Part shown: one piece after another, positions 1 through 29,144 of the stretch
How positions within the stretch are numbered: position 1 is the first letter of the stretch
Layout of the letters: each line of letters opens with the position of its first letter
NCBI GenBank assembly: GCA_043814255.1
Contig: JBDRKD010000060.1
Coordinates: 1-43,027 of the forward strand
Direction: 5' to 3'
Length of the DNA stretch: 43,027 bases
DNA from: Candidatus Micrarchaeota archaeon
GTDB taxonomy: Archaea; Micrarchaeota; Micrarchaeia; Burarchaeales; JAKAKT01
Translations under genes and position numbers: made by a program
Notes under the pieces: generated by a model
Told to the model about the DNA's origin: nothing
Database searches by the model: none
What the model saw: only the letters and a program-made list of their open reading frames with translations

Positions 1-474
1 GTCTATCCAATGACGCTCATCCTGGACTCCCAGATATACGCATCAGTCTACAAGATACCCAAGACGGAATACCATAGCAACAAGCTGCCGCTTGATGATT
101 TTGATATGGGCATATGGATGGACCTGTTCATGGGCCCGAACTTCGGCAAATGGTGCAAGCACTGGTACGATTGGCTATGGTTCTGCTGGCTGTTTGCAAT
201 AATCGAATGGATAATCAATTTCATAATAGCTATTTTCAAGGCATTCGCGTTTATGCTTGTAGTCATATCTGCGGTGCTGAGGGTAGGCGTAGCGGAAGTC
301 ACGGCAGAGGGATTCGATTATTACGCGCACCTGATACCATGGGCGATGCAACCCATCACAGCGGCGTTCATGTTCCCGGTGCTTAACCTGATAATAGTGG
401 TGACTGCAATAAGGAGCCTTTCAGAGGCAATGGGGGGAGAGTCAAGGATAACTGGCCTTGCACAGTTCATATGA
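1..474 (+). CDS. Polytopic membrane protein, paralog 0 of the tandem family (5' end outside window)
   Basis: The frame is open from nt 1. The C-terminal region aligns with the downstream paralogs: last TM helix PVLNLIIVVTAIRSLSEAM, then tail GGESRITGLAQFI-stop. Confidence 0.6.
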   Translation, partial: VYPMTLILDSQIYASVYKIPKTEYHSNKLPLDDFDMGIWMDLFMGPNFGKWCKHWYDWLWFCWLFAIIEWIINFIIAIFKAFAFMLVVISAVLRVGVAEVTAEGFDYYAHLIPWAMQPITAAFMFPVLNLIIVVTAIRSLSEAMGGESRITGLAQFI

Positions 475-487: not shown

Positions 488-1378
488 ATGGCGATGTATG
501 GATGCAGCATGAATTCGGAATTCTTCGATTGGCTGCCAATAATGTCATTCATGATACTCATAGCGTTGCTCGTCATCTCCCTTGTGTACATGCTTTCCCA
601 GGTATTCAGAAGGCCAGAGTGGTCACTCTGGGCCAAGAGCGAGCTGTGGCACACACTCGCATCCATACTCCTTGTTGGAATCATACTTTCATTCATGGGT
701 GTGGCTTGCCTGGTAGCAGAGAACCTTGCCGGCGGGGACCCATTTTATATAGCTGACAGGTACCTGCACCAGATGATATGGGGAAAGATGGTGCCTGCTG
801 TGGACAACCTTTTCGAGCTCTCATTCAGGGCACAGAAATGGTCTGTCTTTACAATAGGAATCCTTAGCTGCAGTTATGGGGTGTGCTTCCAACCATTCGC
901 CGGTTTCGGAACGCTGAGCTATAATTTCGAGACAATGGCCGCACTAGTCACCCCCTTCGCGGCCAGTCTGCTGTTCCAGAAACTGCTCCTGCAGTTCGTA
1001 AAGGAAATAGCATTCACAATAATCTTCCCAATAGGTTTCATCCTTCGCGTGTTCCCACTCACAAGGGATGCGGGGGCATTCCTGATAGCAGCCGCAATAG
1101 CGTTCTACATAGTGTTCCCATTGACATACGTTTTCAACAATCTTCTCATGCTGGAGGTCCTCCAAGACACGATGCTTGTGGACTGGTGCGATACAGGCAT
1201 GGTTGGCTTTGGAGGCGGGATTTCCGGGCTCGGGTATGCCACATGCCAGGCGCTGAACACGATCGGGCAGATCCTGCCGCAGGCAGTGTTCCTCCCAGCT
1301 CTTAACCTGGTGATAACAATATCGTTTATGCAGACAATCGCGAAGGTGCTTTCGCGGGATTATGAGGAAGACCTATGA
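488..1378 (+). CDS. Polytopic membrane protein, paralog 1
   Basis: ATG at 488 with a GAGGGTG SD-like site upstream. Multiple hydrophobic segments. Family motifs: TM1 ...SLVYML, AKSELW, RVFPLTRDAGAFLIAAAIAFYIVFP, LPALNLVITISF. The long C-terminal tail seen in the other paralogs is absent (ends LSRDYEEDL). Confidence 0.75.
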   Translation: MAMYGCSMNSEFFDWLPIMSFMILIALLVISLVYMLSQVFRRPEWSLWAKSELWHTLASILLVGIILSFMGVACLVAENLAGGDPFYIADRYLHQMIWGKMVPAVDNLFELSFRAQKWSVFTIGILSCSYGVCFQPFAGFGTLSYNFETMAALVTPFAASLLFQKLLLQFVKEIAFTIIFPIGFILRVFPLTRDAGAFLIAAAIAFYIVFPLTYVFNNLLMLEVLQDTMLVDWCDTGMVGFGGGISGLGYATCQALNTIGQILPQAVFLPALNLVITISFMQTIAKVLSRDYEEDL

Positions 1379-2682
1379 GACTGAAATTGCTTGCACTGGC
1401 AGTCCTTCTCCTGCTTTTCGCAGGATGCACAATGAGAAGGCCGGCAGCCGGCACATGTCCAGTTGGCACAGCATGGAATGCAGGTTTCAATTGCTGCGTT
1501 GATGGGGCACTCGTGTGCATGCAGAACAGCACTGCGACAACCCTCATGCTTTGGGAAGATTGGCAACAAATGGCATTCCTGGTCGTGTTGATGGGGTTCC
1601 TCCTAATGGGCCTCATGTACATGGTTGCGTATGCATTCGATTTCAAGGAAGTAATGATATTCGTTAAGAACGAGATGATACAGCTCGCCGTCTCAGCATT
1701 CATTCTCGGAAACGTGTTGTTCTTCGTGTTCCTGCTTGATTCGTTAGCTGAAGAGAACAGCGTATACATTCTGGGAATGCATTCCAATGTGACAGACATC
1801 ACTTCTGACTTAATCAAGAATCCGGATGGCTCATGGACCGTCCAGAACACGCAGAACGCAATAAATGTCTCGGAATACAGGCCGGCCGATGGCAGATGGA
1901 ACATAGTGCAAAAGAATCCAGGGGATACCATCGACTGCCCGTCCCCATGCCACATCTATCTCGCTAGAGGATACCTTGGCATGACGTACGAGAGGATAGC
2001 GGTTATGGCGAGGTCAGTCATAAAATCCTATTCGAGTCTGGTATGGATTGACCGCACCCGGGTTGGGGTGTTCATAAACATCATGGGCGTGGTTGCCCAA
2101 ATTGCAGTTACACTGATGCCGTTCACAGGTTTGTCCATAATATACCATTCGCTCGGAACATGTTTTGATTTCATGGCAAAGGCGATGATTGCCCTCAAGT
2201 TCCAGGAATCGATGCTCATGTATATAGAGAGCGGAATATTCCCGCTGTTCTTAATCGTGGGTATAATTCTCCGGTCCGTGTGGTTCCTGCGGAAGCTGGG
2301 AGGGCTCATGATAGCAATCGCAATAGGGCTTTACACAGTGTTGCCTCTTCTCTATGTGCTCTGCTGGTATACTGTGGACAGCAGCACAGTCACACTCCAA
2401 ATAGATTCTGACATGATCCAGAACGGGGATTTCAGCGTCCCGCTCCTCCCATGGCAATCATCAAACCTGGATGCAGGCGCACTCGAGGACTTCCTTTTCA
2501 CGAAGTATAACGCGGACAATACGGTGGATACGATGGGGTTGCTTGACATCACTTCCAGTTTGATGCTGCCCGCTTTCGCAATCCCGCTGTTAAACATATT
2601 CATAACCATAGCGTTCATAAAAACACTGTCTGCTTCAATAGGTGGAGATATGGAGCTTGCAGGATTGACTAGAATCATATGA
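1375..2682 (+). CDS. Polytopic membrane protein, paralog 2, with lipobox signal and an N-terminal Cys motif
   Basis: ATGA overlap with the upstream stop. N-terminus MRLKLLALAVLLLLFAGC (lipobox-like). CPVGTAWNAGFNCCVDGALVC motif. Family motifs GLMYMV, VKNEMI, LRKLGGLMIAIAIGLYTVLP, IPLLNIFITIAF, tail GGDMELAGLTRII-stop. Confidence 0.8.
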   Translation: MRLKLLALAVLLLLFAGCTMRRPAAGTCPVGTAWNAGFNCCVDGALVCMQNSTATTLMLWEDWQQMAFLVVLMGFLLMGLMYMVAYAFDFKEVMIFVKNEMIQLAVSAFILGNVLFFVFLLDSLAEENSVYILGMHSNVTDITSDLIKNPDGSWTVQNTQNAINVSEYRPADGRWNIVQKNPGDTIDCPSPCHIYLARGYLGMTYERIAVMARSVIKSYSSLVWIDRTRVGVFINIMGVVAQIAVTLMPFTGLSIIYHSLGTCFDFMAKAMIALKFQESMLMYIESGIFPLFLIVGIILRSVWFLRKLGGLMIAIAIGLYTVLPLLYVLCWYTVDSSTVTLQIDSDMIQNGDFSVPLLPWQSSNLDAGALEDFLFTKYNADNTVDTMGLLDITSSLMLPAFAIPLLNIFITIAFIKTLSASIGGDMELAGLTRII

Positions 2683-2693: not shown

Positions 2694-3809
2694 ATGGCCA
2701 TAGAAACAGCCCTTATGAGAACGGCTCTCGCAATTATGCTTATGCTCAGCACTGCCTCAGCGGCATGCGAAGGGATGACTTATGGCCCACAGGCTTGGGC
2801 GAATAGCTGGCAGCAGGTTGCGTTCATTGCACTATTGATAGGCTTTTTCATCGTGGGAATGATATATGCGATTGGGATGGGCTTCAGCATGCCCAAACTA
2901 GTCGCTTCTGCAAAAAAGGACCTGATGTATCTTTTATTCATAGCAGTGCTTGCCGGTTCACTAGCAGTCATAGATGACATAATGAACAATACATTCCTCC
3001 CTGCATTCGCAACACAGTCACTCATAGATGCGACTGCGACTAGGCAGAGTGTCACATTCTGCAGCTATGGGGGGATGGCAACATGGGGAGACCTCCAGCA
3101 GCACTCAATAGATTATGTCGAATGCCTGAGGGAGAAGAGCACAACATATTTCGAAGCGCTCATGAACATCAACTTCATACTTGGCTTCGTGTCCTCAATC
3201 ACACTGGTCATAACCCCCCTCGAGCTCATAGGGCTCAGCTTCACCCCTGGTGCCGCCCTGAAGCCGATGATAGATACCCTTGGCTACGGGCTTTATATGC
3301 TCGCCATAAACATAGCGCAACTCAAGACGCAGGAGGTCTTCCTTTGCTTCTCCAGATACTATATGTTCAGAATGGTGCTTCCTGTTGGGATAGCGCTAAG
3401 CGCCCTCCCGATTACGCGTTCAGCAGGAGGGACCCTCATAGCCATAGCAATAGGCTTCTACTTCGTCCTCCCGGTAACATACCTCCTTTCCGAGGAGATA
3501 GTCTACGATTACTGCCTTGCCCATGGGGGCTGCAGTTTCAGCTCATCCTCCCTCGCAATAGCAGCGCAGTTCATGGGCAGTGGACGCGATTTGGTGGAAG
3601 ACATGTTCGAGAGTGGCGGAGCCAGCTCTTCAAGGCTTGTGGATACGTTCTCGCTGGACGGGCCGATGGGGCCAATGATATACGTCATAGGGATAGCGTC
3701 AATGCTGCTTCCCATGGTGTCAATGTTGGTGACACTGATGTTCGTTAAAGCATTCTCAAGAATATTCGGGGCAGAGGCTGATTTCTCTGCAATGATAAAA
3801 ATACTGTGA
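2694..3809 (+). CDS. Polytopic membrane protein, paralog 3
   Basis: ATG at 2694, 8 nt after a GAGGT site at 2681-2685. Motifs GMIYAI, AKKDLM, ALPITRSAGGTLIAIAIGFYFVLP, tail GAEADFSAMIKIL-stop. Confidence 0.8.
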   Translation: MAIETALMRTALAIMLMLSTASAACEGMTYGPQAWANSWQQVAFIALLIGFFIVGMIYAIGMGFSMPKLVASAKKDLMYLLFIAVLAGSLAVIDDIMNNTFLPAFATQSLIDATATRQSVTFCSYGGMATWGDLQQHSIDYVECLREKSTTYFEALMNINFILGFVSSITLVITPLELIGLSFTPGAALKPMIDTLGYGLYMLAINIAQLKTQEVFLCFSRYYMFRMVLPVGIALSALPITRSAGGTLIAIAIGFYFVLPVTYLLSEEIVYDYCLAHGGCSFSSSSLAIAAQFMGSGRDLVEDMFESGGASSSRLVDTFSLDGPMGPMIYVIGIASMLLPMVSMLVTLMFVKAFSRIFGAEADFSAMIKIL

Positions 3810-4804
3810 TGAATATGGGAGACATAATAAATGCATGCGCATCGCCTGAAGACTGGCTTGCCAGCTGGCAGCTTCTCAGCGCAATAGGGCTGATAATGTC
3901 CTGGTTCGTTGTATCCCTGATATATATGATAGGGTCGCTCCTAGATAACATTGGCTTGATGGCAAGGGCAAAGGCAGAGGTCTGGGAAATAATCACAACC
4001 ACAATCATACTTGGGTTAGTCATAGCGCTGGTAACCTCAGCATGCACATTCGAGATCGGTTCCATGGGCGCAGCAGCCACATCCGGCAACATGTTCGATG
4101 TTGCAGAGAACTACCTCCTCTGGCTTAGGAACTATACAATCTCCGTGTTCAAGGACCTGATGACAATGAACAGCCTCATATCCGTACTGCTTTCAGTTAT
4201 GGGTGGGTTCCAGATATATGGCATTGGCATCGTGGGCCAGCCGTTTGCAGGGCTGCAACCCATCATGAACCTGATGAACCTGTTCATGAACGGCATCATG
4301 ATATGCCTCATCATTTCAATTGCCCAGATAACTGTCCTGAAGTTCATACAGGCAGGTGCATTCAACATCCTCCTTCCAATTGGGATAGTCTGCCGTTCCT
4401 TCCCATTCACAAGAAGGTTTGGGGGGTCCATGATAGCTCTCGCCATCGGCCTCTTCATAATATACCCGTTCCTACTTGTCATAAATGATGCAATAATGGG
4501 AACGCCAAGCAACAATCCAACTAACGTACCCACAATAAACTATAGCATAATGGATGCCATCACAGGCAACCTCATGAGCCTTGGCTTCGGGCTTATAACC
4601 GGAGGGGTAGGTTTCCTCTATGCAATAGCGGATATACTTACAACATACTTCGTTCAGAAGCCCGTCACCGCCATAGGGCAGGTTGCACTTGCAGCGTTCA
4701 TACTGCCCGCTCTGAACAGCGTCGTGTTCGTTATGGCGGTGCGTGACCTCTCGAGAATACTCGGACAGGAGGTTGACGTGACAAGCATGAGCAGAATGGT
4801 TTAA
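3809..4804 (+). CDS. Polytopic membrane protein, paralog 4
   Basis: The ORF-track start at 3806 is GTG. The first ATG is at 3809 and shares 1 nt with the upstream TGA (TGATG). Motifs SLIYMI, AKAEVW, SFPFTRRFGGSMIALAIGLFIIYP, LPALNSVVFVMAV, tail GQEVDVTSMSRMV-stop. Confidence 0.8.
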   Translation: MNMGDIINACASPEDWLASWQLLSAIGLIMSWFVVSLIYMIGSLLDNIGLMARAKAEVWEIITTTIILGLVIALVTSACTFEIGSMGAAATSGNMFDVAENYLLWLRNYTISVFKDLMTMNSLISVLLSVMGGFQIYGIGIVGQPFAGLQPIMNLMNLFMNGIMICLIISIAQITVLKFIQAGAFNILLPIGIVCRSFPFTRRFGGSMIALAIGLFIIYPFLLVINDAIMGTPSNNPTNVPTINYSIMDAITGNLMSLGFGLITGGVGFLYAIADILTTYFVQKPVTAIGQVALAAFILPALNSVVFVMAVRDLSRILGQEVDVTSMSRMV

Positions 4805-4829: not shown

Positions 4830-5864
4830 ATGGTATGGAACACCACTGCAGCGGACATGGCGCAGAGCCTTGGGAACCCGTCATTCAGCTGGGCGGCATT
4901 CGCCCTAATGGCAGTTCTCATGCACTTCCTGATTCTCTCAATCCTCTACATGATATCCAAGGCATTCAGCATACATGACCTGTATAAGTGGACCAGGAGC
5001 GAGCTTGCCCAGGCAGTGGCGTCAGCAGTATTGATTGGCCTGTTGTTCAGTGTCGTTGCCGGAGAATCATTCGGGATCGCATTCCTCCAGAACCAGACTG
5101 AACTCATGGCGGGCAGCATTCTCATGCCCGGGGCAGCAGGAGCAACATCAATAGAGGTGCGCGCAGACCCATTCATAGCGTCATACGCGTTCCTCAGGAA
5201 CATGCTCGAATGCGTTAAGACCAAATACATGGACGAATTCAGGCACAACAGGCTTAGGGAGATGGCGCTCTCGATAATCATAACAATACAGATATTCGGG
5301 ATTAAGATCCCAATAGAGCTCAGCATGATTCTCATACCCATATACCAGAAGATGGTACTGTCGCATTATATGGCAAACAACTACACTTGGCTCGCGATCG
5401 CACTGTACTTCCAGATTCATTTCCTGAAGTGGGTGGAGACAGCGATGTTCACAGTCTATCTCCCGTTGGGCATAATCCTCCGCATATTCCCATGGACAAG
5501 GGGCGCAGGCGGTCTGCTCATAGCATTGGCAATAGGGCTTTACCTTGTCTACCCCCTGATGTTCATTATAATCATTGCCAGTTCCGGCTCTGCTCCGGAA
5601 GGGTGCCAAGCAGTGCCAATAACAGTGCAGAGGAACCTGTGTACGACGGATCCGTCATCGTTTGTGGACCTGATAGAAGCAGCAAAGGCAGAGTCATCGC
5701 TGCGCACAGGAAGCCTCGGAGGACCTGCATCTTCGATGATAATATTCGGGTTCTTCTATCCGTTCACCATACTGGTGGTGGTCTTTGCGTTCGTTCGTTC
5801 TCTTGCCCCATTCCTCGGTGCGGACATAGCTGAGATGGGCAGAGGTCTATTCAGGATGATTTGA
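4830..5864 (+). CDS. Polytopic membrane protein, paralog 5
   Basis: ATG at 4830 with AGGTGA at 4819-4824. Motifs SILYMI, TRSELA, IFPWTRGAGGLLIALAIGLYLVYP, tail GADIAEMGRGLFRMI-stop. Confidence 0.8.
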   Translation: MVWNTTAADMAQSLGNPSFSWAAFALMAVLMHFLILSILYMISKAFSIHDLYKWTRSELAQAVASAVLIGLLFSVVAGESFGIAFLQNQTELMAGSILMPGAAGATSIEVRADPFIASYAFLRNMLECVKTKYMDEFRHNRLREMALSIIITIQIFGIKIPIELSMILIPIYQKMVLSHYMANNYTWLAIALYFQIHFLKWVETAMFTVYLPLGIILRIFPWTRGAGGLLIALAIGLYLVYPLMFIIIIASSGSAPEGCQAVPITVQRNLCTTDPSSFVDLIEAAKAESSLRTGSLGGPASSMIIFGFFYPFTILVVVFAFVRSLAPFLGADIAEMGRGLFRMI

Positions 5865-6619
5865 TGGACGAGAACAATCTCATTGTGAGGAACAAGCGCG
5901 TGGTTGTGCAGATGGTCCTAGCGGCCATAATGATTCTCACTGGAGTTATATTACTTCAGATGAGCCAAAGAGCGCCAGAGTTTACTGGGCAGGATTTTAC
6001 TACAATTGGGAACACTTCGGAGAACACAAGCGTTTTCAGGCAACCCGAGTTTACAGAGGTAGGGAACTGCACGCCGCTTTTCAATTCATCACGGAGGATG
6101 TCATATGCATATGATATCTCCTCACCATCCCCGGAAGGCACGATAAGCATGCGGATATCATATGATTTCATAGGCCAGGAATCAGTTGATGGGCGTCTTA
6201 TTGACATTATAGAGATAACAGCCAACGGTTCGCATAAGGGCCTCACAATGGACCCCGTGTGGAGGATGTGGCTCGATTCCGAAACAGGCCAATGCATCGA
6301 AGCAGTCCTTAATATGGGGGGGGGTTCCATCTCACCATCCGACGTTCCTGGGGGAAGCAAGTACATGCTCCCGATGGACTGCAAGGAGGCGCAGTTTGGC
6401 ATGCCAGTTGTCGTGTGCGAGGAACAGATGGAGGGCCTCTCACCAGTCGCAACCGAAACAGTTAAAGTACCTGCCGGTGAATTCCAAACAGAGAGGTATG
6501 AAACACCGAATGATGAAACGATGTGGATTGCATACGGGATGCCAATCCCAGTCAAGTTCATGTTCAAATCAATGGGAGATTATGCGGTTTCCGAATTGAT
6601 ATATTACGAGGAGAAATGA
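5864..6619 (+). CDS. N-terminally TM-anchored protein with a ~210-aa extracytoplasmic domain, unknown function
   Basis: The track start at 5861 is TTG. ATG at 5864 overlaps the upstream TGA (TGATG). Single hydrophobic helix VVVQMVLAAIMILTGVILLQM, then a soluble domain with sequons (NTS, NCT, NSS, NGS). Contains a G9 homopolymer at 6316-6324. Confidence 0.75.
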   Translation: MDENNLIVRNKRVVVQMVLAAIMILTGVILLQMSQRAPEFTGQDFTTIGNTSENTSVFRQPEFTEVGNCTPLFNSSRRMSYAYDISSPSPEGTISMRISYDFIGQESVDGRLIDIIEITANGSHKGLTMDPVWRMWLDSETGQCIEAVLNMGGGSISPSDVPGGSKYMLPMDCKEAQFGMPVVVCEEQMEGLSPVATETVKVPAGEFQTERYETPNDETMWIAYGMPIPVKFMFKSMGDYAVSELIYYEEK

Positions 6620-9600
6620 TGAAAAACACCATACCATTGTTGTTCGCGTTCCTGCTCCTGGCAGGCTGCTTCAACATGACTCCGCGCACAGACACCCCTG
6701 ATGAGGTTATCGTCACCATCACATCCACAAAGAACTGCACTGATGCGAATTGCACTTGCCTGGTGGAAGAGAGGAGGGGGAGGTACCAATGGTGGACATG
6801 CGAGGTAGGCTATGGTGTCGGCGGGGCATTCGCAGAGGCCGGAATATACAACAGCACGCAGGGAGACTACTGCGAGGACATCAGGGTTGGCGGTCTTCCA
6901 TCACGGGTATGCCTTTCATACGTGACAGTTGACCCCTGGTACTGGGTGAAGGCGGATTGCACCTGGACGTGCGGGGACAAGTGGTTTGCATCATGCGCCC
7001 CACCATTTGGGGGATGGCATTCTGGGCAATGTGAGCTTAAATGCATTCAATATTGCGGGTGGCCAACTCCATTCGGCTGCGCTGGCAGATGCCATTGCCA
7101 CGGAATTAAAGAGAGTAGGGCGCAGCCATGCCCTCTAATTACAACAGACTTTGACTGCACATGTCTCCGTTACACCGGTAGCGTAGGGGAAGTCCCATGC
7201 ATGGGGACAGGTCCTGCCGGAGTTGGCTGTGAAGTCATAGGCCCGGCGCTCTATATCGATATATTTGGCACTACCGTTCCATTCTGTTGCCGTCTTAACT
7301 GCACAGACATCGTTCCGGCCAGCTACATGTGCCACAACCAGACCAGCGGCTCAGACATGTTCTTCCAGAAATGCAGCATCCATTATGAGGGTTCATTGCA
7401 GGGGGGCAGGTTCCATGTAGTCAACCCATGCAATGCAACTGCGATGCAGAACATCGTGCAGGACCCGTTGAGGGAGATACCCTTCTTCATGATTGGGCAG
7501 GGAGCTACGCTTGATGCATTCCTGAGGGCAAAAGAATACTGCTCGCCACTCCACAAGTATGAATACACCATCGAGCTCGGGGACACTGTTTTCCACCCAC
7601 CTGGGCTGAACATAACCAACACATCAAGAATCTGCTTTGAGAGCGACAATGTCGCCCATGACCTTTTGCTTGATGGCGGGGCTAATGGGTCATTCAACCT
7701 GACCAAGCATATATGCATAGACGACCTCGTAATCAACACGCCTGCCACAGAACGCCACGTGATGTCCCACAGGTTCACCGGAGAGACATGCGATATCGAC
7801 GTAAGCGCAGACGGCCACCTATATGTGGATGAAGGGAATTTCACCCCGCAGTACCTCATCTATCCTGAGGGCACGTCATTGGAGATACATAATACAGGTT
7901 CAACAAACCGCCAGCTCAACATGTGGGACAATCAATGGGGAGTCGGTGCGGCAGTAACAACGAACATCGCAAGCTATAGTTCTGCGTTCCCAATAGTCAC
8001 TGCAATCGGCCCGAACCTCTTCCAGGATGCTGACAGCAACCACAGTGCGATGGTATTCATCCTGAGTAATGAAAAGAACGTGACTGTCAATGGAGGGGGG
8101 ATGAGCCCAGCAGAGATTGCGATAAGGCAGGGGGAACGAGTCTGCTTCACATGCGCAACAGCAGTTGGGCATATACTTTCTATTTATGAGATGGCAAGCC
8201 CATCAGACCTAATATTCTATGAGAACAAGACGCTTGGCGCCAGCGACATCTGCTGCTGGAGGCCGCCGCCAGGCACATACTTCATCAACGACACTACAAT
8301 AAATGCGAACATAATGCTTTACGTAACTGATAAGAAAACAACGTATGCAGTGCAACTCCAAGATTACCACTTCAACCCGCCCGTGCTAGCACTGCCTAAT
8401 GGAACCGCAGTGTGCTTTGAGAACCCATCCGATTTCGCGCGGGATGTAGAAGTCAGGGAATTAGGCCATACAATCCACATCGCCGCTAAAAACGAGAATT
8501 GCACATACATACCTGCACTTGACCTGCAGCATATAGACGACCCATACACAACATCCAACATGTCCATAGTCATTTACAGCAACCTGTCGACATTCGTGAA
8601 CATCTCAGGCATTGGCGCCCAACCCCAATTCATACAAACAAGCCCAGGCGGAAAACTGTGCTTTGCGAACCTGGACAACATACCTCATGATGTGACAAGC
8701 CTCGGCGCAGTGGATGCGTGTCTCCCATGGGGCGGCAACCCACCTGCTCCAGGAACACTGACAATACTGCCAAATGAGATGGACTGTTTCGATATAGTCG
8801 ACCCGGGAGTGTTCTATTTCTACGAATACTCTGAGCGCATGGACCCGCAAACAGGCAACTTCACAATAACCAACACAACAGTCACGGTCACCGCATCCCA
8901 CCCAGGGAACTACACGTTCTTCATACAGAAGGAACCGCCAGTAAACGGTTCTATTCAACCCCCATCCCATTACCTATTGTCCAATGACACGCTGACTTGG
9001 GCCAATTGTAACTCCACACACCCATGGACAATTGTTGCAAACAAGAACCTGTCAGAGGTTCCGATTCCAATGAATGTTCCGGCTTCCAGCATGACTGATT
9101 GGACAGACTTGATTGTCGGTTCATCAGAACTGACCCTTGTCCACGCTGGAGAGATGAATCTCACTGCAAGGATTTTCGTATCCGACAAGGAGTCTTTCTC
9201 TGAAAAGCTGGACTACCTTTACACAGGGCCCGCGACAAAGAATAACGCAAGCATCCACCTGGCAATTCAGTGGCTGGCCGGGGATATTGGCGATTACACA
9301 CTATGGCTGACGAGATTTATACTCGGGGAAAGGGCAATCACTTCATTCCCAACAGGGCTTAGGAACAGGATTCTTGTCACCCTGTATCCTGAGGACACAT
9401 TTGTCGAAACAATACGCATCCCATCAGGGAGCAACATGACATGGATAAACGTGGATGATGAGGCCCATTGGGTCACCACTTTATGGAATGGCATTTCCAG
9501 TTGGATTCAGCCTTATGGAATGATTGGCGACAGGATAGCTGAATTCGATATGCTCGCAGGCATGTACATACTATCAGAACCATCCTCGGGCATCACATAC

Positions 9601-12600
9601 CCTGTGGAAGCCTATGACCTGAATTGGCAGATAAACGTGAGCATGAGTGCATTTGATCCATCCCCGCTGAACACAAACGTAAGCAAGATGGTGTGCTTCA
9701 ATAACCACGGGGCAGTTCCCAAGATACTGCGCATAACGCCTCCGATTGTAGCGACTTATACTATCGCCGAGGGGGTTCCCTGGAACCCGCCAGATGGCCA
9801 TCACAACGTCTGGGTCCGTGACTCAGGCACCGGCGTGCTGACATGCCCCCACACGTTGTATGTCCCCCCAAATCCCTCCGAATACACCGAAGGCAATATC
9901 ATTGGTTTTGGCTGCGATACAGGGGCATATGAGCTGGTTGAGACCTTGGGCGATACCTGGCGCGGGTCAATACCAGGCGCGGAAGTATCATACCTTGACG
10001 CAATTGGAGTTGGCTGTAATGTCCCGCATACAATCATGACTAATGCAGTTCCTACGGTATTAGCGCCACCTGCTCCAGTCTCCGCACCTGCCCCGGTCAT
10101 CGCAGGAGCAAACTATATCCAACTCTACACCGATAACGGCGGTGTCTCGAGGCAACTGAGACACGCATATTTCGGCAACGCTGTGCAGTTCGGCCTTGTG
10201 CCCCCACCAGTAACGCAGACATTCACGGAAACCAATGTAATTCCAGTGAACACCAGTTCGCCCTTCACATTCACAGATGACCTTCCAACCAATGTCGTTT
10301 CCGCTGTGATGGACATCACATACAACGATTGCGGCGAACTTTACATAAACGGTGCATTTGTGCACGGGAGCTCTGCAGCAGCCCCAACAGCCCCATTCTT
10401 CTGCAACCTAACAGGACCAGCAACGTTCAACGGAATCAACATAATGCCGTTCCTAAACCCAGCGGGGGTAAACACATTTGATTTAATAATGAACAATACG
10501 GTAGGGGGGGACAACGGCTACCAAATCGATATAGCACTGACGTTCTCATCACAACCGATTACAGATGTAGTCCTCCATCCAGGGGACCCAATCTCCTGGG
10601 TGAATCTCGCGGCATGCGGCGGGGACGTCATAGATGTGGAAACATATCTGGAGCCAGTTGAATTGAACATCAGTGCGAAGACAATAGAGTGCTACAATGT
10701 TACAGTCCCTGGGACATATACTGTACAGGACATATCCACCCCGTCAATAGGCTCAATGCAGATAATAGCCGCCGTTGGAGCGGCATTGGGCACGGATTAC
10801 GTCCACCTGATGAGGCTCTCTTCGGATGCGACAGACATCCTGACCACACCCCACAGCACAGTCCGCTGGCACAGTGCAGATGGAGCGGCATACTACCTGC
10901 AGACAATGACCGGGAATGTCACAATTCCAGGGGACTACATCTGGAGCCCGGTAGCATACGGAACGAGCATAATAAACGAGACGCAGACAGGTGCATCCTG
11001 GAGGGTGACTGCCGCGGCAGGGAACTACAGCCAGAGTGTTTTCTACCCAACAAACGTATTCAACCCACCAACAGCTCTCATAAGGCCGGCAACATCAGTA
11101 TGCTTCAGGAACAACGACACAATGGCCCGAACAATCTCGCTGTGCAGATACTTGCCCAACTACACAATCACAGCCCCGCCATGCGATGAATTCTGCAATG
11201 TTTCTTTCCCAACTTATATTAATAATTGGGTGGATCACCCCGCATCCCCTGGCGCAGGATCTACTGATACCTATATTATCAATAACTGGATATACCTAGA
11301 TCCCCAAGATCCTCCGCCTTCCAGCGCAACACTAACTATACTATATGACGATTGCGGAAGCATGCGCATAAACAATGTTCCGGTACCTGCAATGACTGAT
11401 ACTACCTGCCCAACGAATCCACCTGGATGCCCTCCCGCAGGTCCTGTTCCGTGTGGTGATTGGACAGTTGGAGATGTTGCTGCTTACTTGCATGTTGGCT
11501 GGAACAGCATAAGAATAGATGTACTTGATTCATATGGTGCGGACATTGGTTACATAATGGACATCAATGCTCCGCGCAACTACCCGACATGGTCCAGGGC
11601 ATTCGCTACTGGGGAGACCTGGTGCATGGACCCGTCCACATTGCCTGATTACGATCATTCAGTCTGCCCGGACTACAACGGTCCGCCCGCACCGCCTGTG
11701 GCCATATTCAACTTCTCGGACAACGAGACTGCTGACAAGCTGTTGGTCAATCTCACAAACATCTGCGATGGCTCAGAGGTCAAGAGGATATCCGAGAAGC
11801 TCAACAGGTTCGATGATGATATATTCCAGATGCCTGAATTCAACATCTACCCATCATACAACGAGCACGGTCCCTGCTGGCCATCCATAGTGACTTCAGA
11901 AGTGGACCAGACAAATCCGGCATGCATCTGCGCCCAGCTTGAGACAATAACAAGGGAATGCGAGAACTGCACAACTGCACTTGCAGTTGTTTACCCTGAC
12001 CAGAGGGAGCCGTATGTAAACAGCGTCTTCGGCATGTGCGCAGACGATGCAGACATCGCCGCACTGTTCATCGATGCAAACCACCTAATCACAACCCAGC
12101 TCCCGGGTATATGTGATATAAACTGCAACTGCAACTTCACAATGTTCTGGGACAACATAGCTGATTTCAGCAGCTACATACTATACAACTATGGCAAGCC
12201 ATCCACAATCCTTGCTTTCAAGATGGAGGAAAATCCTGCCGCCTGCTGGGACAATGAGACAATAGGGCGGTTGTTCGAGGAGTTCTATCAAGTTCCAGTC
12301 ACGCAACTGGCAGGAAAGGGGCTATTCGGTCTCTCATATGCGTGCTTTGATGATAGGACACTTGCAGGCGATTGTTTCATCCACCTCCCGCCAAACCCAT
12401 CCCCCGCTGGAAAGGCGCTCACAACCGGCGCAAGCAGGGTGCAGCCAGAATTCGATGCATGGTATGGGAAATGTGGGGCGTATTACTATAACTCAGAAGG
12501 GCTTACGATGACGACATTCTCCGGGAACGATACAAACACCACAGTATGCGACAGCTCTCGCATCATGGACCTGTATCAGGAGTATAAGTGCTATGCGGAT

Positions 12601-12603
12601 TAG
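6616..12603 (+). CDS. Giant (~1995 aa) secreted or lipid-anchored Cys-rich, sequon-rich surface protein
   Basis: Start moved from the track's 6523 to ATG 6616 (ATGA overlap with the upstream stop, GAGGAG at 6608-6613). This gives MMKNTIPLLFAFLLLAGC, a lipobox-type signal. It has a Cys-dense N-terminal region, dozens of N-x-S/T sequons, a degenerate repeated strand motif and two YDDCG-type modules. The uninterrupted ~6-kb frame is itself strong coding evidence. Confidence 0.9.
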   Translation: MMKNTIPLLFAFLLLAGCFNMTPRTDTPDEVIVTITSTKNCTDANCTCLVEERRGRYQWWTCEVGYGVGGAFAEAGIYNSTQGDYCEDIRVGGLPSRVCLSYVTVDPWYWVKADCTWTCGDKWFASCAPPFGGWHSGQCELKCIQYCGWPTPFGCAGRCHCHGIKESRAQPCPLITTDFDCTCLRYTGSVGEVPCMGTGPAGVGCEVIGPALYIDIFGTTVPFCCRLNCTDIVPASYMCHNQTSGSDMFFQKCSIHYEGSLQGGRFHVVNPCNATAMQNIVQDPLREIPFFMIGQGATLDAFLRAKEYCSPLHKYEYTIELGDTVFHPPGLNITNTSRICFESDNVAHDLLLDGGANGSFNLTKHICIDDLVINTPATERHVMSHRFTGETCDIDVSADGHLYVDEGNFTPQYLIYPEGTSLEIHNTGSTNRQLNMWDNQWGVGAAVTTNIASYSSAFPIVTAIGPNLFQDADSNHSAMVFILSNEKNVTVNGGGMSPAEIAIRQGERVCFTCATAVGHILSIYEMASPSDLIFYENKTLGASDICCWRPPPGTYFINDTTINANIMLYVTDKKTTYAVQLQDYHFNPPVLALPNGTAVCFENPSDFARDVEVRELGHTIHIAAKNENCTYIPALDLQHIDDPYTTSNMSIVIYSNLSTFVNISGIGAQPQFIQTSPGGKLCFANLDNIPHDVTSLGAVDACLPWGGNPPAPGTLTILPNEMDCFDIVDPGVFYFYEYSERMDPQTGNFTITNTTVTVTASHPGNYTFFIQKEPPVNGSIQPPSHYLLSNDTLTWANCNSTHPWTIVANKNLSEVPIPMNVPASSMTDWTDLIVGSSELTLVHAGEMNLTARIFVSDKESFSEKLDYLYTGPATKNNASIHLAIQWLAGDIGDYTLWLTRFILGERAITSFPTGLRNRILVTLYPEDTFVETIRIPSGSNMTWINVDDEAHWVTTLWNGISSWIQPYGMIGDRIAEFDMLAGMYILSEPSSGITYPVEAYDLNWQINVSMSAFDPSPLNTNVSKMVCFNNHGAVPKILRITPPIVATYTIAEGVPWNPPDGHHNVWVRDSGTGVLTCPHTLYVPPNPSEYTEGNIIGFGCDTGAYELVETLGDTWRGSIPGAEVSYLDAIGVGCNVPHTIMTNAVPTVLAPPAPVSAPAPVIAGANYIQLYTDNGGVSRQLRHAYFGNAVQFGLVPPPVTQTFTETNVIPVNTSSPFTFTDDLPTNVVSAVMDITYNDCGELYINGAFVHGSSAAAPTAPFFCNLTGPATFNGINIMPFLNPAGVNTFDLIMNNTVGGDNGYQIDIALTFSSQPITDVVLHPGDPISWVNLAACGGDVIDVETYLEPVELNISAKTIECYNVTVPGTYTVQDISTPSIGSMQIIAAVGAALGTDYVHLMRLSSDATDILTTPHSTVRWHSADGAAYYLQTMTGNVTIPGDYIWSPVAYGTSIINETQTGASWRVTAAAGNYSQSVFYPTNVFNPPTALIRPATSVCFRNNDTMARTISLCRYLPNYTITAPPCDEFCNVSFPTYINNWVDHPASPGAGSTDTYIINNWIYLDPQDPPPSSATLTILYDDCGSMRINNVPVPAMTDTTCPTNPPGCPPAGPVPCGDWTVGDVAAYLHVGWNSIRIDVLDSYGADIGYIMDINAPRNYPTWSRAFATGETWCMDPSTLPDYDHSVCPDYNGPPAPPVAIFNFSDNETADKLLVNLTNICDGSEVKRISEKLNRFDDDIFQMPEFNIYPSYNEHGPCWPSIVTSEVDQTNPACICAQLETITRECENCTTALAVVYPDQREPYVNSVFGMCADDADIAALFIDANHLITTQLPGICDINCNCNFTMFWDNIADFSSYILYNYGKPSTILAFKMEENPAACWDNETIGRLFEEFYQVPVTQLAGKGLFGLSYACFDDRTLAGDCFIHLPPNPSPAGKALTTGASRVQPEFDAWYGKCGAYYYNSEGLTMTTFSGNDTNTTVCDSSRIMDLYQEYKCYAD

Positions 12604-12623: not shown

Positions 12624-14984
12624 ATGGCAATGCTCAGTGGCGATGATTGGAAGAGCAATCTTGCTCTTATTGTAGGCGGGGCCATATTGCTTTCGCTCCT
12701 GGCGTACGTATGCACCCACAGCTGCCCTGCTGGTTCAACATGGGACTTCAATAAATCATGCTGCGTTGATGCGTTCGGCAACTGCATAACGAAATGTTTC
12801 CCAGATGTTCTTGATGCGGCTTGTGACGCAAAGTGCCCATGCCACCCTGTTGGAAACCCATGTTCATGCGGATGCGGAAACCTGGTCTGCGAGCCGGGCA
12901 TTGGGGAGGATTGCAACACGTGCCCAGGGGATTGCGGCGTATGCCCCCCTCCGGTTGTTATAACTCCATGTACCCACAACGGCATGCCCTGCGTTGCAAG
13001 TGGAGAATGTTGTTCAAGTAACTGCAACCCACCTGGTTCCGTATGCTGCCCAGGAGGAACACAATGGAGCGGTGCCCTCTCATGCTGTGCAGATCTCATC
13101 AGCGGGATATGCAACTGCTATGGGAATGGCGTTATCTGCGGTGCACCGGCAGAATGCTGCACAGGCAACTGCGACAACAGCCACTGCTGCCCTGTCGGAA
13201 CGATCTGGAATGCAACTGAGAACTGCTGCCAGAACCCTGCAGGCGTATGCGTCTGCTACGGAAAGGGCTCCAGTTGTGCAGGGGATCCTGATTGCTGCGG
13301 TGCACTCTATTGCAGTAACCTGCACTGCTGCCAAGGTTCTGACTATTGGAATGCCGGCCTCTCATGCTGTGCGGATTTGACAACAAACCTATGCTCATGT
13401 TTGGGAAGGTCCCAGCTATGCACAATGCCCGACGAATGCTGCTCAGGAAACTGCGATTCCGGACACTGCTGCCCAACAGGCACAGTATGGGATTCTGTTG
13501 ATAGCTGCTGCAAGAACGCTGCCGGTTCGTGCGTAGGTATGGGGGACTGGGACTGGTATTGCCTAGGAGGCGACGTTAACCTGAGTGCCCTCCCGCCGCC
13601 AACATGCGGAAGCGGTGCGTGCGACCCTGGCGAGACGTGTGCGAGCTGCCCAGGAGACTGCGGTATCTGTCCTACATGCAACGGAAACGGGGTATGCGAT
13701 GTTGGCGAGAACTGCCTCAACTGCCCAGGGGATTGCAGTGTAACTGTCCCTCCAGCTCCTGATTTCTCCCAAACGGTTTCCGAGCAATACGCAACCTCAG
13801 CAGGCAACAACTCAGCCTATTCATTCATAATAACCGTCCCAGTAGGCACAATCAACACAGCAACAATGGACATACGATATGATGACTGCGGGTCAACATC
13901 AATAAACGGAGTGCCTGCTCACGGGGCATATCCATGCGGCACAAATGCAGTGTGGGTGTATGGGATAGACATAACTCCCAACGTACACACTGGCGTCAAC
14001 GTATTCAACCTCATGGTTCATGATACTATAGGGGGCTTTATAGGGTATGATGCGATAATCACAGTCACATACTCTCCAAACACCGAGTGTTGCGGCGATG
14101 GTGCGTGCACAGGCACCGAGACCTGCGTTACATGTACGGGGGACTGCGGGTCTTGTTGCAACGGGGACGGGTTGTGCACAGGGGGCGAGACATGCCTGAC
14201 ATGCCCTGCAGACTGTGCAAACACATACACCCCCTCTCCAGTCACAAAGAGCCTTGTCGTTGTCTCTGCCCCATCAACCCAATGGGATACCGGAACATTC
14301 CTTGAGAACGTCACAATCCCGCCATACCCAATGAGCACGGCCCAATTCACATCAATCTGGTATGATGATTGCGGTACAGTGGAGATAAACGACTTGCTTG
14401 CACACCAGGAGCCGGACTGCAGTGGTTCAGCAACCCCGACATACACAAACATAGATGTCAGGCCATACACATTCCCCGCGTGGAACATCCTGCGCTTCGA
14501 TGTTCAGGACACCCGCACAGGAGGCGCCATAGGCTATAATGTTGATTTCGAAGCGACATTCGCCCCTGTCAGCACTTGCTGCGGAGATGGGATTTGCGAG
14601 GGGCCGGAGACGTGCACCAACTGCCCTGCAGACTGCACAGCACCACCAATAGACATCTCCCAGACATTGGCGTTCTCTGAGGCCAGTGCTATGGGGACCA
14701 TAAGAACATACACAGAAGTACTTACACTATCAAACAACCGCATAAGCACCGCCACAATGGATGTCTGGTATGATGACTGCGGCCAGACGAAATTGAATGG
14801 TTTCATCGTCCACGACAACTTCCCGTGCTCGACACTGGCAACGCCGAAGCAATTCGGCATAGATATGGTTCCATTCCTAGTCCCGGGAAACAATGTTTTC
14901 GAGTTCTGGACAAACGATTCACACGGAGGGGGGAACATCGGCTATGATGTAGATGTAGTAGTAAACTACGCTCCGTGCACATAA
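12624..14984 (+). CDS. Modular Cys-rich surface protein (786 aa): TM/signal anchor, CGxGxC motifs, 4 knottin-like repeats, 3 YDDCG modules
   Basis: ATG at 12624 preceded by AGGTGA at 12614-12619 (the track start 12588 overlaps the upstream gene). Hydrophobic anchor LALIVGGAILLSLLAYV. Internal repeats are described under findings. Confidence 0.88.
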   Translation: MAMLSGDDWKSNLALIVGGAILLSLLAYVCTHSCPAGSTWDFNKSCCVDAFGNCITKCFPDVLDAACDAKCPCHPVGNPCSCGCGNLVCEPGIGEDCNTCPGDCGVCPPPVVITPCTHNGMPCVASGECCSSNCNPPGSVCCPGGTQWSGALSCCADLISGICNCYGNGVICGAPAECCTGNCDNSHCCPVGTIWNATENCCQNPAGVCVCYGKGSSCAGDPDCCGALYCSNLHCCQGSDYWNAGLSCCADLTTNLCSCLGRSQLCTMPDECCSGNCDSGHCCPTGTVWDSVDSCCKNAAGSCVGMGDWDWYCLGGDVNLSALPPPTCGSGACDPGETCASCPGDCGICPTCNGNGVCDVGENCLNCPGDCSVTVPPAPDFSQTVSEQYATSAGNNSAYSFIITVPVGTINTATMDIRYDDCGSTSINGVPAHGAYPCGTNAVWVYGIDITPNVHTGVNVFNLMVHDTIGGFIGYDAIITVTYSPNTECCGDGACTGTETCVTCTGDCGSCCNGDGLCTGGETCLTCPADCANTYTPSPVTKSLVVVSAPSTQWDTGTFLENVTIPPYPMSTAQFTSIWYDDCGTVEINDLLAHQEPDCSGSATPTYTNIDVRPYTFPAWNILRFDVQDTRTGGAIGYNVDFEATFAPVSTCCGDGICEGPETCTNCPADCTAPPIDISQTLAFSEASAMGTIRTYTEVLTLSNNRISTATMDVWYDDCGQTKLNGFIVHDNFPCSTLATPKQFGIDMVPFLVPGNNVFEFWTNDSHGGGNIGYDVDVVVNYAPCT

Positions 14985-26537: not shown

Positions 26538-26538
26538 T

Positions 26539-26889: not shown

Positions 26890-26894
26890 ACTCA

Positions 26895-28912: not shown

Positions 28913-28916
28913 AAAC

Positions 28917-29144
28917 TCATCCTTTCTCTGTTTCAGCAATGTACTCCCTGATAAGCTGCAATGACTCCTCAGCAGACTTCTTCTCCAGTTTCTCTATTGC
29001 AAAACCAGCATGAATCAGTATATAATCCCCCACAGCTACTTCATCCATGAGCGAGATGTTGGCTTTCTTCCTGACTCCGCCATAATCTACAGTAGCGTTA
29101 TCCCCTTCTACCTTGAGTATCCTTGCAGGAATTGCATAACACAT
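28917..29144 (-). CDS. hypC: Hydrogenase maturation chaperone HypC
   Basis: 75 aa. N-terminal MCYAIPA with the essential Cys2. Confidence 0.88.
   Translation of the reverse strand: MCYAIPARILKVEGDNATVDYGGVRKKANISLMDEVAVGDYILIHAGFAIEKLEKKSAEESLQLIREYIAETEKG

Follow-up and report, generated by a model that had tools for sequence, protein, structure and literature searches.

The largest gene in the window, a 43,027-nt contig from a Candidatus Micrarchaeota archaeon, encodes a predicted giant lipoprotein and belongs to a conserved, previously undescribed operon, where it comes after the genes for six polytopic membrane proteins that are paralogues of one another (the hexad). We propose, with confidence and doubt evenly balanced, that the giant protein may serve an envelope complex built on the hexad, as its extracellular arm for recognition or adhesion. 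The first-pass annotation had treated the gene as standing alone and its product as a giant of unknown function; it thereby missed (i) the distal position of the gene in a deeply conserved nine-gene operon with six membrane paralogues and (ii) the cupredoxin-like repeats, jelly-roll modules and conserved C-terminal domain within the protein. The mediation of cell-cell or cell-host contact that it suggested would fit the data and remains hypothetical.

The gene is real. An uninterrupted open reading frame spans 6523..12603 on the + strand; the start is the ATG at 6616, which overlaps the stop codon of the upstream gene (ATGA), and the gene (6616..12603) encodes 1995 aa plus stop. The product opens with MMKNTIPLLFAFLLLAGC, and its n-region, h-region and lipobox are kept across all homologues. 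Its rank as the largest product, noted previously, holds against 951 and 922 aa for the next two. Homologues in other Micrarchaeota contigs are intact at 1888–2973 aa, and in independent assemblies the frame is unbroken at similar length (1888–1997 aa), so the gene is no assembly artefact. As observations that would speak against it, the first-pass annotation had named an interrupted frame and clear similarity, over most of the length, to an S-layer protein or enzyme that has been characterised; the frame is unbroken, and profile, Pfam and PDB searches matched no such protein. Homologous loci come from metagenome-assembled genomes of Candidatus Micrarchaeota / Micrarchaeia (DPANN archaea), in agreement with the small-archaeon setting assumed at the outset.

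The giant gene is gene 8 of nine closely packed genes on the + strand, with gaps of −4 to +25 nt and junctions of −4, 11, −4, 25, −4 and −4 nt. Hexad paralogue 1 is cut by the window start, and its C-terminal end (10..474) shares 69% identity with that of the L001 protein, which at its full length of 655 aa carries a Cys-rich ectodomain. Paralogues 2 (488..1378, 296 aa), 3 (1375..2682, 435 aa, with a Cys-rich stretch at the N-terminus and a lipobox, LFAGC, of its own), 4 (2694..3809, 371 aa), 5 (3806..4804, 332 aa) and 6 (4830..5864, 344 aa) follow, the last being the best conserved (AF2 pLDDT 75). Next comes S (5861..6619, 252 aa), a single-pass, N-anchored acidic glycoprotein that is conserved in the type-A loci described below. 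The giant gene is succeeded by that of an N-anchored Cys-rich protein (12624..14984; 12% Cys) in which Cys-knot repeats occur alongside three 'YDDCG' modules.

The hexad cassette is widespread across the Micrarchaeota phylum, and the protein family has 3193 representatives at 50% identity. Exactly six paralogues are found in 19 of 20 fully covered cassettes and their order is kept, 107 of 120 positional best matches lying on the diagonal. The family has no Pfam, NCBIfam or PDB match. Hydropathy gives five transmembrane segments per protein, the AF2 model consists of long helices, and two elements are conserved in the alignment, the positively charged loop RIFPxTRGAGG and an amphipathic helix at the C-terminus. 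We infer that loop and helix are cytoplasmic and the ectodomains outside, in which case a cytoplasmic partner might dock at either element.

The partner encoded downstream of the hexad differs between lineages. Downstream sequence of at least 4 kb was available for 31 loci, of which 11 are type A (giant), 8 type B (a lipoprotein of ~1300 aa) and 8 type C (an ATPase), and 4 have none. Every type-A partner and nearly every type-B partner has the lipobox, and the type-B lipoprotein carries the alpha/beta core of the giant's C-terminal domain (hhalign 97.4%, E 1.1e-11). In type-C cassettes, two small membrane proteins come after the hexad, together with an ATPase of the CedB/VirB4/HerA superfamily that has the Walker A motif GITGAGKS; its best NCBIfam matches are CedB (6e-19), CedD and VirB4-like families, all scoring far under the respective cutoffs, and its PDB matches are HerA and VirB4. 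No ATPase was found in the window or in the sequence covered at any type-A or type-B locus. The suggested link of hexad and giant to translocation therefore rests on the orthology of the cassettes, not on the window locus.

These data bear on whether the giant could be an adhesin that works alone, coupled to the hexad neither physically nor functionally and placed beside it only through conservation of gene order. DPANN genomes commonly encode giant adhesin-like proteins (Golyshina et al. 2017, PMC5498576), and 4 of 31 cassettes, which have no flagged large partner directly behind the hexad, would fit this explanation. However, the start of the gene overlaps the upstream stop codon, the gene order is unchanged in contigs whose hexad proteins are just 32–36% identical to those of the window, every giant homologue found adjoins a hexad, and type-B partners retain a homologous domain while the rest of the protein differs. 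We consider the absence of coupling improbable; adjacency, which is no proof in itself, suggests that giant and hexad associate physically.

The lipobox-type signal (LLLAGC) proposed in the first-pass annotation is present: the signal peptide (6616..6669) ends in L-A-G-C with Cys18, after which comes a conserved (F/L)NMTPR motif. Hydropathy detects this N-terminal segment alone, consistent with the earlier statement that a C-terminal anchor is missing. The Cys-dense N-terminus was likewise recovered with all motifs listed for it (CTDANCTC, CTWTCGDKWFASC, CELKCIQYCGW, CAGRCHCHG). The protein contains 75 Cys (3.8%), 27 of them within the first 273 residues, and 56 of the 75 are conserved in three homologues of 41–49% identity. 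The C-terminal ~500 aa are also Cys-rich, a feature absent from the first-pass annotation. N-x(not P)-S/T sequons number 52, compared to 19.0±4.0 (maximum 32) when the giant's own sequence was shuffled 1000 times, and their density of 2.6 per 100 aa compares to 0–0.8 in the clearly cytoplasmic proteins of the window; 33 of the 52 are common to at least two of three homologues. The claimed enrichment thus stands, whereas the claim that sequons occur throughout is approximate, given three sequon-free stretches of 150–190 aa (residues 80–227, 1022–1211 and 1529–1698). The protein is acidic (D+E 10.2%, K+R 4.4%). Together, these features predict lipidation, glycosylation and disulfide formation.

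Downstream of the lipobox, the Cys-rich N-terminal domain (6670..7515, residues 19–~300) contains 26 Cys beyond the lipobox Cys, nearly all invariant in five homologues, and has no Pfam or PDB match. It is followed by a stalk (7516..9915, residues ~301–1100) of degenerate cupredoxin-like beta-sandwich repeats, for which an iterated repeat HMM places starts near residues 306, 464, 551, 635, 931 and 980; repeat 7 lies further downstream (10954..11220, residues ~1447–1535), so that at least seven such beta-sandwiches are present. The repeats share with cupredoxins (plastocyanin/azurin) the N-terminal strand pattern F-x-P-x(5-7)-G-x-x-V-x-F-x-N-x-D-x-x-x-H, and one of the repeats scores above the gathering threshold of PF13473 Cupredoxin_1 (34.3 over 27 bits). 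An extracellular multi-copper or blue-copper redox protein, exchanging electrons with, for example, a host or minerals, might be read from this score, from the weak PDB matches of the repeat profile, which are almost only plastocyanins and name no other family, and from the first ligand position, where about half of the repeats keep a His. Nevertheless, the C-terminal Cys-x-His-x-Met copper loop is missing in every repeat, and the second conserved Cys stands before, not after, the G-x-Y strand, where the invariant 'VCF' Cys is its more likely partner. We regard a redox function as highly improbable; unlike cupredoxins, the repeats appear to be tandem structural modules with a probable disulfide each.

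Comparison of homologues, as suggested by the first-pass annotation, revealed two hypervariable segments that hold lectin-like modules. Segment 1 (9913..10515, residues ~1100–1300) retains 9–17% identity with many gaps among close homologues. Copy 1 of a 'YDDCG...ING...IGY' jelly-roll-like module was located at 10210..10548 (residues 1199–1311), and copy 2 at 11221..11577 (residues 1536–1654), within variable segment 2. The module, also common to the downstream Cys-rich protein, differs in number and position among orthologues. Its weak full-length match in the PDB (E 0.03, 'Lectin'; 6t0q/6t1d/6kbj) is to the PA14-like, tandem jelly-roll lectin of Pleurotus ostreatus; the module aligns with both jelly-roll domains via ...DD......NG...N-x-F...G but has extra conserved Cys. 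The lectin-like assignment is statistically weak, and sugar or calcium binding is putative.

The conserved C-terminal domain (11683..12600, residues 1690–1995) was delimited from an alignment of six type-A sequences and has its alpha/beta core at nt ~11926–12345 (residues ~1771–1910). In the AF2 model, which is poor as a whole (mean pLDDT 48), this core reaches pLDDT 68–86 with beta-alpha alternation. A surface-tethered enzyme with a glycoside-hydrolase-like (beta/alpha)-barrel, using the jelly-rolls as carbohydrate-binding modules and scavenging or remodelling host or environmental glycans, would account for the alternation, for the lectin resemblance of the modules and for near-threshold Foldseek matches that are mostly GH2, GH26+CBM35, GH128, GH5, GH18, GH30 and other TIM barrels. 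However, no Foldseek match reaches E ≤ 1e-3, profile searches against PDB and Pfam found nothing, the invariant columns contain neither a Glu nor an acidic pair, and the strand-end motif is Y-x-K-P rather than of the N-E-P type. An enzymatic role therefore seems rather improbable.

It is unlikely that the giant has a purely structural function in the envelope, as part of the S-layer or as a canopy or spacer of the pseudo-periplasm, with the hexad as mere anchor or assembly platform and no role in host contact or transfer. Several features would suit such a function: the giant is large, acidic, probably glycosylated and built of beta-sandwiches, and the cassette is phylum-wide, as expected of a housekeeping structure in the envelope. 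SLP_Mh (Micr_00292; PF05123 family), the S-layer protein known from Micrarchaeota, comes from the same phylum and is also a large, secreted, acidic and glycosylated surface protein, and its HHpred similarities to 'copper-binding' and 'glycoside hydrolase' proteins are likewise weak (bioRxiv 10.1101/2021.04.28.441871). Yet SLP_Mh is a 101-kDa protein that nearly lacks Cys and Met and has an S_layer_N domain at its N-terminus (bioRxiv 10.1101/2021.04.28.441871), whereas the giant has about twice its length, a lipobox, 3.8% Cys and a hexad operon. The giant lacks PF05123 or any TIGR S-layer domain, and identity with SLP_Mh was ruled out. A purely structural role is also at odds with the hypervariable segments and their shuffled lectin-like modules, and with the swapping of the hexad's partner between lineages, even for an ATPase set.

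For the proposed recognition or adhesion arm, we envisage that the giant is exported by Sec, lipid-anchored at Cys18, and heavily N-glycosylated and disulfide-rich on the outside of the Micrarchaeota cell. Co-translated with the hexad, it would most likely dock on a membrane base of six different but related five-helix proteins with helical and Cys-rich ectodomains. From the membrane outward, the Cys-rich N-domain would be followed by a stalk, shielded by glycans and made of at least seven cupredoxin-like beta-sandwiches that hold no copper; two exchangeable lectin-like jelly-roll modules in the only hypervariable segments would come next, and the conserved alpha/beta C-terminal domain would form the outermost part. 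Its task at the surface would be recognition or adhesion, with host glycans as one conceivable target, in the service of an envelope apparatus that may be a type-IV-secretion-like or Ced-like transfer machine, as orthologous cassettes adjoin a CedB/VirB4/HerA-type ATPase.

This ATPase is a feature that such hexad cassettes share with bacterial type IV secretion systems and the archaeal DNA-transfer systems Ced and Ted. In the R388 architecture, VirB5 sits on VirB6, and Ced and VirB are homologous; a giant on a hexad platform would parallel the VirB5 tip adhesin on VirB6. Hexad proteins resemble VirB6/TrwI as long-helix polytopic proteins, and VirB6/TrwI is their rank 2 fold match in the PDB, where nothing is significant (E 0.08, TM 0.20–0.24). 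Hexad sequences and folds show no significant similarity to VirB6/TrbL, with no TrbL/VirB6 Pfam signal in any of 32 members, and the hexad comprises six fixed paralogues versus one homo-oligomeric VirB6/CedA. Further differences are the window without ATPase, the lack of an identified pilin and the giant's lack of VirB5 similarity. Giant repeat adhesins with distal lectin modules include the bacterial RTX/Bap-type proteins with PA14 domains and the SPEARE proteins of Nanohaloarchaeum antarcticus. The giant has no sequence relationship to them, lacks RTX, serine-protease and nuclease domains, and differs in its N-terminal lipobox anchor and its operon with six membrane paralogues. What it shares with them is the setting in an episymbiotic small-genome organism and the logic of a membrane-proximal anchor, a beta-sandwich repeat stalk and distal, variable, sugar-binding-like modules.

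The giant protein lies in an uninterrupted frame, 6523..12603 (+), whose biological start we place at ATG 6616 because this codon shares an ATGA with the stop of the gene before it, opens a classical signal (MMKNTIPLLFAFLLLAGC) and agrees with the N-termini of all homologues. We defined a lipobox signal as a positively charged n-region and a hydrophobic h-region, with [LVI][ASTVI][GAS]C falling inside the first ~15-35 residues. The giant carries such a signal and lipobox in residues 1-18, followed by a conserved (F/L)NMTPR, and an equivalent lipobox is present in all type-A partners (giants encoded downstream of the six-paralogue cassette) and in nearly all type-B partners (~1300-aa lipoproteins in the same place). 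Cys18 would be lipidated after cleavage at the lipobox; hydropathy analysis of the giant detects the N-terminal segment alone. The protein contains 75 Cys (3.8%), of which 27 fall in residues 1-273; the last ~500 residues are also Cys-rich, and 56 of the 75 positions are conserved in all four close homologues. Cys-count parity, used as a check on disulfide formation, gave a mixed outcome (8 even vs 9 odd), part of which is affected by lipobox mis-calls.

The number of N-x-S/T sequons was compared with two backgrounds. The giant has 52 sequons, compared with 19.0±4.0 (maximum 32) in 1000 same-residue shuffles, and its density of 2.6 per 100 aa compares with 0-0.8 in the clearly cytoplasmic proteins of the window (Lhr, HypD/E/F, Fic). 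In at least two of three homologues 33 of the 52 sequons recur, and stretches of 150-190 aa at residues 80-227, 1022-1211 and 1529-1698 are sequon-free. From this sequence pattern, N-glycosylation of the giant appears likely; no gene for the oligosaccharyltransferase AglB is found within the window. Frame, Cys count, shuffles and hydropathy thus bear out the initial description of a lipobox-led, Cys-dense gene with an excess of sequons. The four Cys-rich strings quoted in that description are all present in the protein, which at 1995 aa is, as claimed, the longest product in the window.

A word-indexed search of 5.8 billion proteins returned only three full-length homologues, all intact, of 1921-1997 aa and 41-49% identity; giants of more distant Micrarchaeia measure 1888, 2791 or 2973 aa. 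When the best-conserved neighbouring gene was used as seed, scans led to contigs of Candidatus Micrarchaeota / Micrarchaeia, in agreement with the assignment to a small-genome archaeon, and the named members of that neighbouring-gene family belong to Micrarchaeota or Anstonellales, apart from one contig of 2 kb assigned to an Aenigmarchaeota bin. Two assemblies of one species carry giant genes with 100% DNA identity, so the variability of the giant, which the first-pass annotation had proposed to look for across strains, lies between species rather than between strains. Only the Cys-rich protein encoded downstream of the giant differs between these two assemblies (homologous loci L001:15778-18162 and L003:8207-10672), by exactly one 27-aa repeat (PYCGDGSCDSTESCSSCSADCGACPAG); this difference is either copy-number variation or assembly collapse.

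Between close homologues, residues ~1100-1300 form the only truly hypervariable stretch of the giant (9-17% identity, many gaps), and residues ~1550-1650 are less extreme (27-30% identity, about 20% gaps). Each of these poorly conserved segments contains one copy of a ~110-residue module with the pattern 'YDDCG...ING...IGY'. Three further copies occur in the downstream Cys-rich protein, and orthologous giants contain 2, 1, 1, 0 and 0 copies, at positions that also vary. The module is invariant at D45 (the second Asp of the motif), C46, G47, N93, G108 and Y109. Searched against PDB, its profile aligns end-to-end with both jelly-roll domains of entries named 'Lectin' (6t0q/6t1d/6kbj) at an E-value of only 0.03, the alignment running through a DD...NG...N-x-F...G pattern. 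PA14 and jelly-roll lectin domains are beta-sandwiches in which a DD...N motif binds calcium or sugar; Pfam gives no PA14 hit in the giant.

When the whole protein and its segments were searched against Pfam, NCBIfam and PDB sequences, Cupredoxin_1 alone was found. The Cys-rich N-domain (residues 19-~300), whose Cys are almost all invariant, has no match anywhere, and its profile gave no usable hits against PDB. The Cupredoxin_1 match (residues ~572-635) scores 34.3 bits vs the 27-bit Pfam cutoff and falls on one of a series of stalk repeats of ~60 residues, located by iterated HMM at residues ~306, 464, 551, 635, 931, 980 and 1447; one repeat is above threshold, and equivalent positions were found by the same procedure in all giant homologues. 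This profile match above a curated threshold assigns a cupredoxin fold (Pfam PF13473/PF00127), and a profile of 13 repeats gave weak PDB matches, nearly all plastocyanins, that span the strands up to the first copper-ligand His. Both observations would suit a giant acting as a copper redox protein. The Cys-His-Met loop that follows the G-x-Y strand and completes the type-1 copper ligand set is, however, absent from the alignment of giant repeats, and a blue-copper function was rejected; since the copper sites are absent, a redox role is unlikely and the copper-protein reading scarcely tenable. What every repeat has instead is a 'VCF' Cys that is invariant, with another Cys ~30-40 residues further on; the two probably form a disulfide.

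The C-terminal domain (1690-1995) is kept even in the 2791-aa homologue. An AF2 model of residues 1530-1995, built from five sequences, has a mean pLDDT of 48 and shows an alternating beta-alpha core at 1759-1899 (pLDDT 68-86). Glycosidases that combine a CBM with a TIM barrel abound in the near-threshold Foldseek list for this model, as would be expected if the giant were a tethered glycosidase. The search with this low-confidence model (pLDDT 48) returned nothing at E <= 1e-3, all fold hits lying at or above 2e-3; the domain profile gave no usable hits against PDB, and a word-index homology search with the domain alignment retrieved a single partial protein. As the alignment contains no invariant Glu and no acidic pair, we do not call the domain an enzyme, nor do we take the glycosidases in the Foldseek list as a sign of enzymatic function. 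Assignment to the GH-A-type (beta/alpha)8 hydrolases, whose two catalytic carboxylates are conserved at strand ends, found no support, with no invariant Glu and fold hits only at >=2e-3, and we regard a tethered glycosidase as distinctly unlikely.

The giant is encoded in a run of nine genes on one strand, separated by 13, −4, 11, −4, 25, −4, −4 and ~20 nt. Upstream are five complete genes of the hexad, a set of six paralogous polytopic membrane proteins, and the 3' end of a sixth that is cut by the window start; the hexad is followed by S, a 252-aa single-pass acidic glycoprotein, then the giant, then the downstream protein of 786 aa with 12% Cys. Gene order is identical in every locus encoding a giant homologue and is kept in distant Micrarchaeia, where the sixth hexad paralogue, used as query, is only 32-36% identical to that of the window. 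The Lhr-type helicase at 15002-17770 (−) is convergent to the operon and is the same neighbour in the close loci L001-L006.

The hexad paralogues are 20-30% identical to one another and share the motif LPxGIxLRxFPxTRGAGGxLIAxAIGxYxVxP and a C-terminal ...LGADxxExGRxLxRxI. We surveyed the hexad in 71 loci. Of the 20 cassettes flanked on either side by at least 1 kb, 19 contain exactly six paralogues, and 107 of 120 genes in 20 complete cassettes of all types find their best match at the corresponding position of a reference cassette (~20 expected by chance). These two counts imply that the six paralogues are ancient, non-redundant and fixed in order, as is characteristic, at the level of sequence, of a 1:1:1:1:1:1 hetero-oligomer. 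With the hexad profile, exhaustive HMMER searching recovered 3193 representatives at 50% clustering, of which 2757 reach E <= 1e-10 and 872 reach E <= 1e-30; the 29 matches of a word-index search with the hexad alignment are a gross underestimate by comparison. The family has no match in Pfam, NCBIfam or PDB, by sequence or by profile, and the TrbL/VirB6 family (PF04610) was found in none of 32 hexad members at E <= 10.

AF2 models the sixth paralogue (mean pLDDT 75, pTM 0.70) as a bundle of very long helices, and hydropathy gives five TM segments. In our reading of the model the N-terminus would be outside and the C-terminus inside, consistent with the signal- or lipobox-led, Cys-rich N-terminal extensions of some hexad paralogues. 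A ~110-residue helical domain with sequons and a loop with a conserved Cys pair (C259, C271) are predicted outside; we place the RIFPWTRGAGG loop, which is positively charged, and the amphipathic helix at the C-terminus inside. A Foldseek search of PDB with the model gave no hit at E <= 1e-3; TrwI/VirB6, from the stalk of the R388 type IV secretion system, comes second (E 0.08, TM 0.20-0.24) and is taken as a lead only. Some hexad paralogues have very large ectodomain expansions, 786-1504 aa vs ~330-450, as in the third gene of locus L017 (1504 aa) and in L073:1-7279. Many distant loci have, just upstream of the hexad, a divergently oriented gene for a large protein of 1038-1454 aa with no family hit (L009:578-3694, L011:1-3680, L012:1888-5676, L013:1471-5733, L044:1-3716 and L071:5127-8300, all −); the window is cut before the corresponding position.

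Downstream partners were counted in the 31 loci with at least 4 kb of sequence after the cassette. Three arrangements were found: (i) type A (11 loci), S followed by a giant that carries both the cupredoxin-like repeats and the C-terminal domain; (ii) type B (8 loci), a lipobox-led protein of 1250-1490 aa with 3-4.5% Cys that typically starts ...GCIxPVxKLGCCLKE; and (iii) type C (8 loci), two ~270-aa membrane proteins with no family hit, a P-loop ATPase of 512-518 aa and then more surface proteins. The remaining 4 loci have no flagged partner, although one of them does encode a type-B-like protein that escaped flagging. The type-A genomes include GCA_027364455.1, GCA_021813385.1, GCA_041305385.1, GCA_964632135.1 and the JAVZPM/JAVZRC bins. 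The giant's alpha/beta core (~1771-1910) matches residues ~925-1069 in the alignment of type-B proteins (97.4% probability, E 1.1e-11), and hmmsearch gave weaker matches at consistent positions; as judged from these alignments, type-A and type-B partners are related through this core. The type-B cassette of locus L058 lies on the 1,366,857-bp metagenome contig Ga0209514_10000001, which may be a near-complete genome.

The type-C ATPase has the Walker A motif GITGAGKS and matches DUF87/HerA (3.9e-14), AAA_10 and P-loop_TraG in Pfam; CedB (6e-19), CedD, several VirB4-like conjugation ATPases and HerA in NCBIfam, all far below cutoffs; and HerA and VirB4 in PDB. It was found in ten loci, all of type C, and in none of the type-A or type-B loci as far as they are sequenced, nor in the window. 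At L029:2995-6153 the ATPase is split by an intein carrying a LAGLIDADG endonuclease.

We give an even chance to the reading that the giant is the extracellular recognition or adhesion arm of an envelope complex built on the hexad. The protein would be exported by Sec, lipidated at Cys18 and retained at the outer face of the membrane, with its Cys-rich N-domain beside the hexad ectodomains, two of which are also Cys-rich, and with S and the downstream Cys-rich protein anchored N-terminally next to it. The glycan-shielded beta-sandwich stalk would span the pseudo-periplasm, and the shuffled lectin-like modules would confer variable binding specificity. The alpha/beta domain may serve a function common to type-A and type-B partners, which could be binding of the hexad or of a conserved ligand. 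A hexameric ATPase, as in type C, would most obviously dock at the conserved cytoplasmic loop and C-terminal helix of the six paralogues. Alternatively, the giant could be a stand-alone adhesin unrelated to the hexad; with the gene order preserved in every giant-encoding locus, we assign this alternative a low probability.

Returning to the hexad-based complex, a more far-reaching and only tentatively held possibility is a new DPANN machine for cell-to-cell transfer or 'host-tapping', with a logic akin to type IV secretion or Ced. Such an undescribed envelope machine would be widespread in Micrarchaeota, with the giant as its extracellular arm. Six ancient paralogues sharing their own fold would form its base as an obligate hetero-hexamer, conserved cytoplasmic motifs might couple this base to a CedB/VirB4-like ATPase hexamer whose gene lies in cis or in trans, and the giant lipoprotein with its shuffled lectin-like modules would set host specificity.

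Beyond the operon, the window encodes hypF (+), hypB-like (−), hypE (−) and hypD (−) genes at 23671-28939, with the hydrogenase structural genes absent from the window; hydrogenase maturation genes are unexpected in a reduced DPANN genome. Three secreted surface proteins follow: an acidic CARDB-domain protein of 951 aa (29807-32662), a 218-aa protein with 8.7% Cys (32788-33444) and, at 403 aa, one with 7.7% Cys that gives a Pacifastin_I-like hit (37859-39070). At 40558-42058 (−) a Fic-domain gene adjoins an Imm5-like immunity gene. Over the last 10 kb of the window, from ~33 kb, G+C declines from ~0.50 to ~0.41, which suggests a genomic island.

How DPANN archaea recognize hosts, attach to them and take up resources is the wider question, for which the locus offers a concrete and testable candidate gene set. 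Cryo-ET of a cultured Micrarchaeon relative showed large envelope complexes at the contact site (PMC11329633), to which no genes have been assigned. The candidate set comprises ~3200 sequence clusters without a Pfam, NCBIfam or PDB model, arranged in an invariant six-gene cassette, which is coupled to giant glycosylated lipoproteins in some loci and to a secretion-type ATPase in others. If this association is true, the giant would give access to the outer portion of a machine specific to the phylum, with possible uses in antibody work, glycoproteomics and comparison of host ranges via the variable lectin-like modules; if it is false, the giant still defines a new and clearly bounded family of surface proteins whose domain structure has been mapped.

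SLP_Mh, the characterised S-layer protein of Micrarchaeota, has a mass of 101 kDa, a PF05123 domain and hardly any sulfur amino acids, and S-layer proteins of this kind have few sulfur residues, measure 40-200 kDa and are the most abundant envelope protein (bioRxiv 10.1101/2021.04.28.441871). The giant, in contrast, has 3.8% Cys, is 1995 aa long and lacks PF05123, and thus shares neither the sulfur poverty, the size nor the domain of SLP_Mh; neither S_layer_N (PF05123) nor TIGR01564/01567 was found in the whole protein or its segments with Pfam and NCBIfam. On these grounds, identity with an S-layer protein of this type was rejected. A broader structural or S-layer-like role, to which a glycosylated protein on the cell surface might lend itself, we consider unlikely. 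SPEARE giants of Nanohaloarchaeota combine serine protease, adhesion and restriction-endonuclease domains, none of which Pfam shows in the giant. Ced/Ted systems are homologous to conjugation systems; the window contains no VirB4/CedB ATPase, which is found only in the orthologous type-C cassettes, and no candidate for a VirB2/CedA1-type pilin. Literature searches that covered gene clusters and surface proteins of DPANN archaea and Micrarchaeota found no description of the cassette, and Sakai et al. 2022 do not use the term conserved DPANN gene cluster. Giant glycosylated surface proteins are a kind already known from DPANN archaea; the family of this giant, with fewer than ten known members, and its set of modules are new, and the chief novelty is that the giant is coupled in a fixed way to a large membrane family of six paralogues, unannotated as yet, which in other loci has a VirB4/CedB-like ATPase as its partner.
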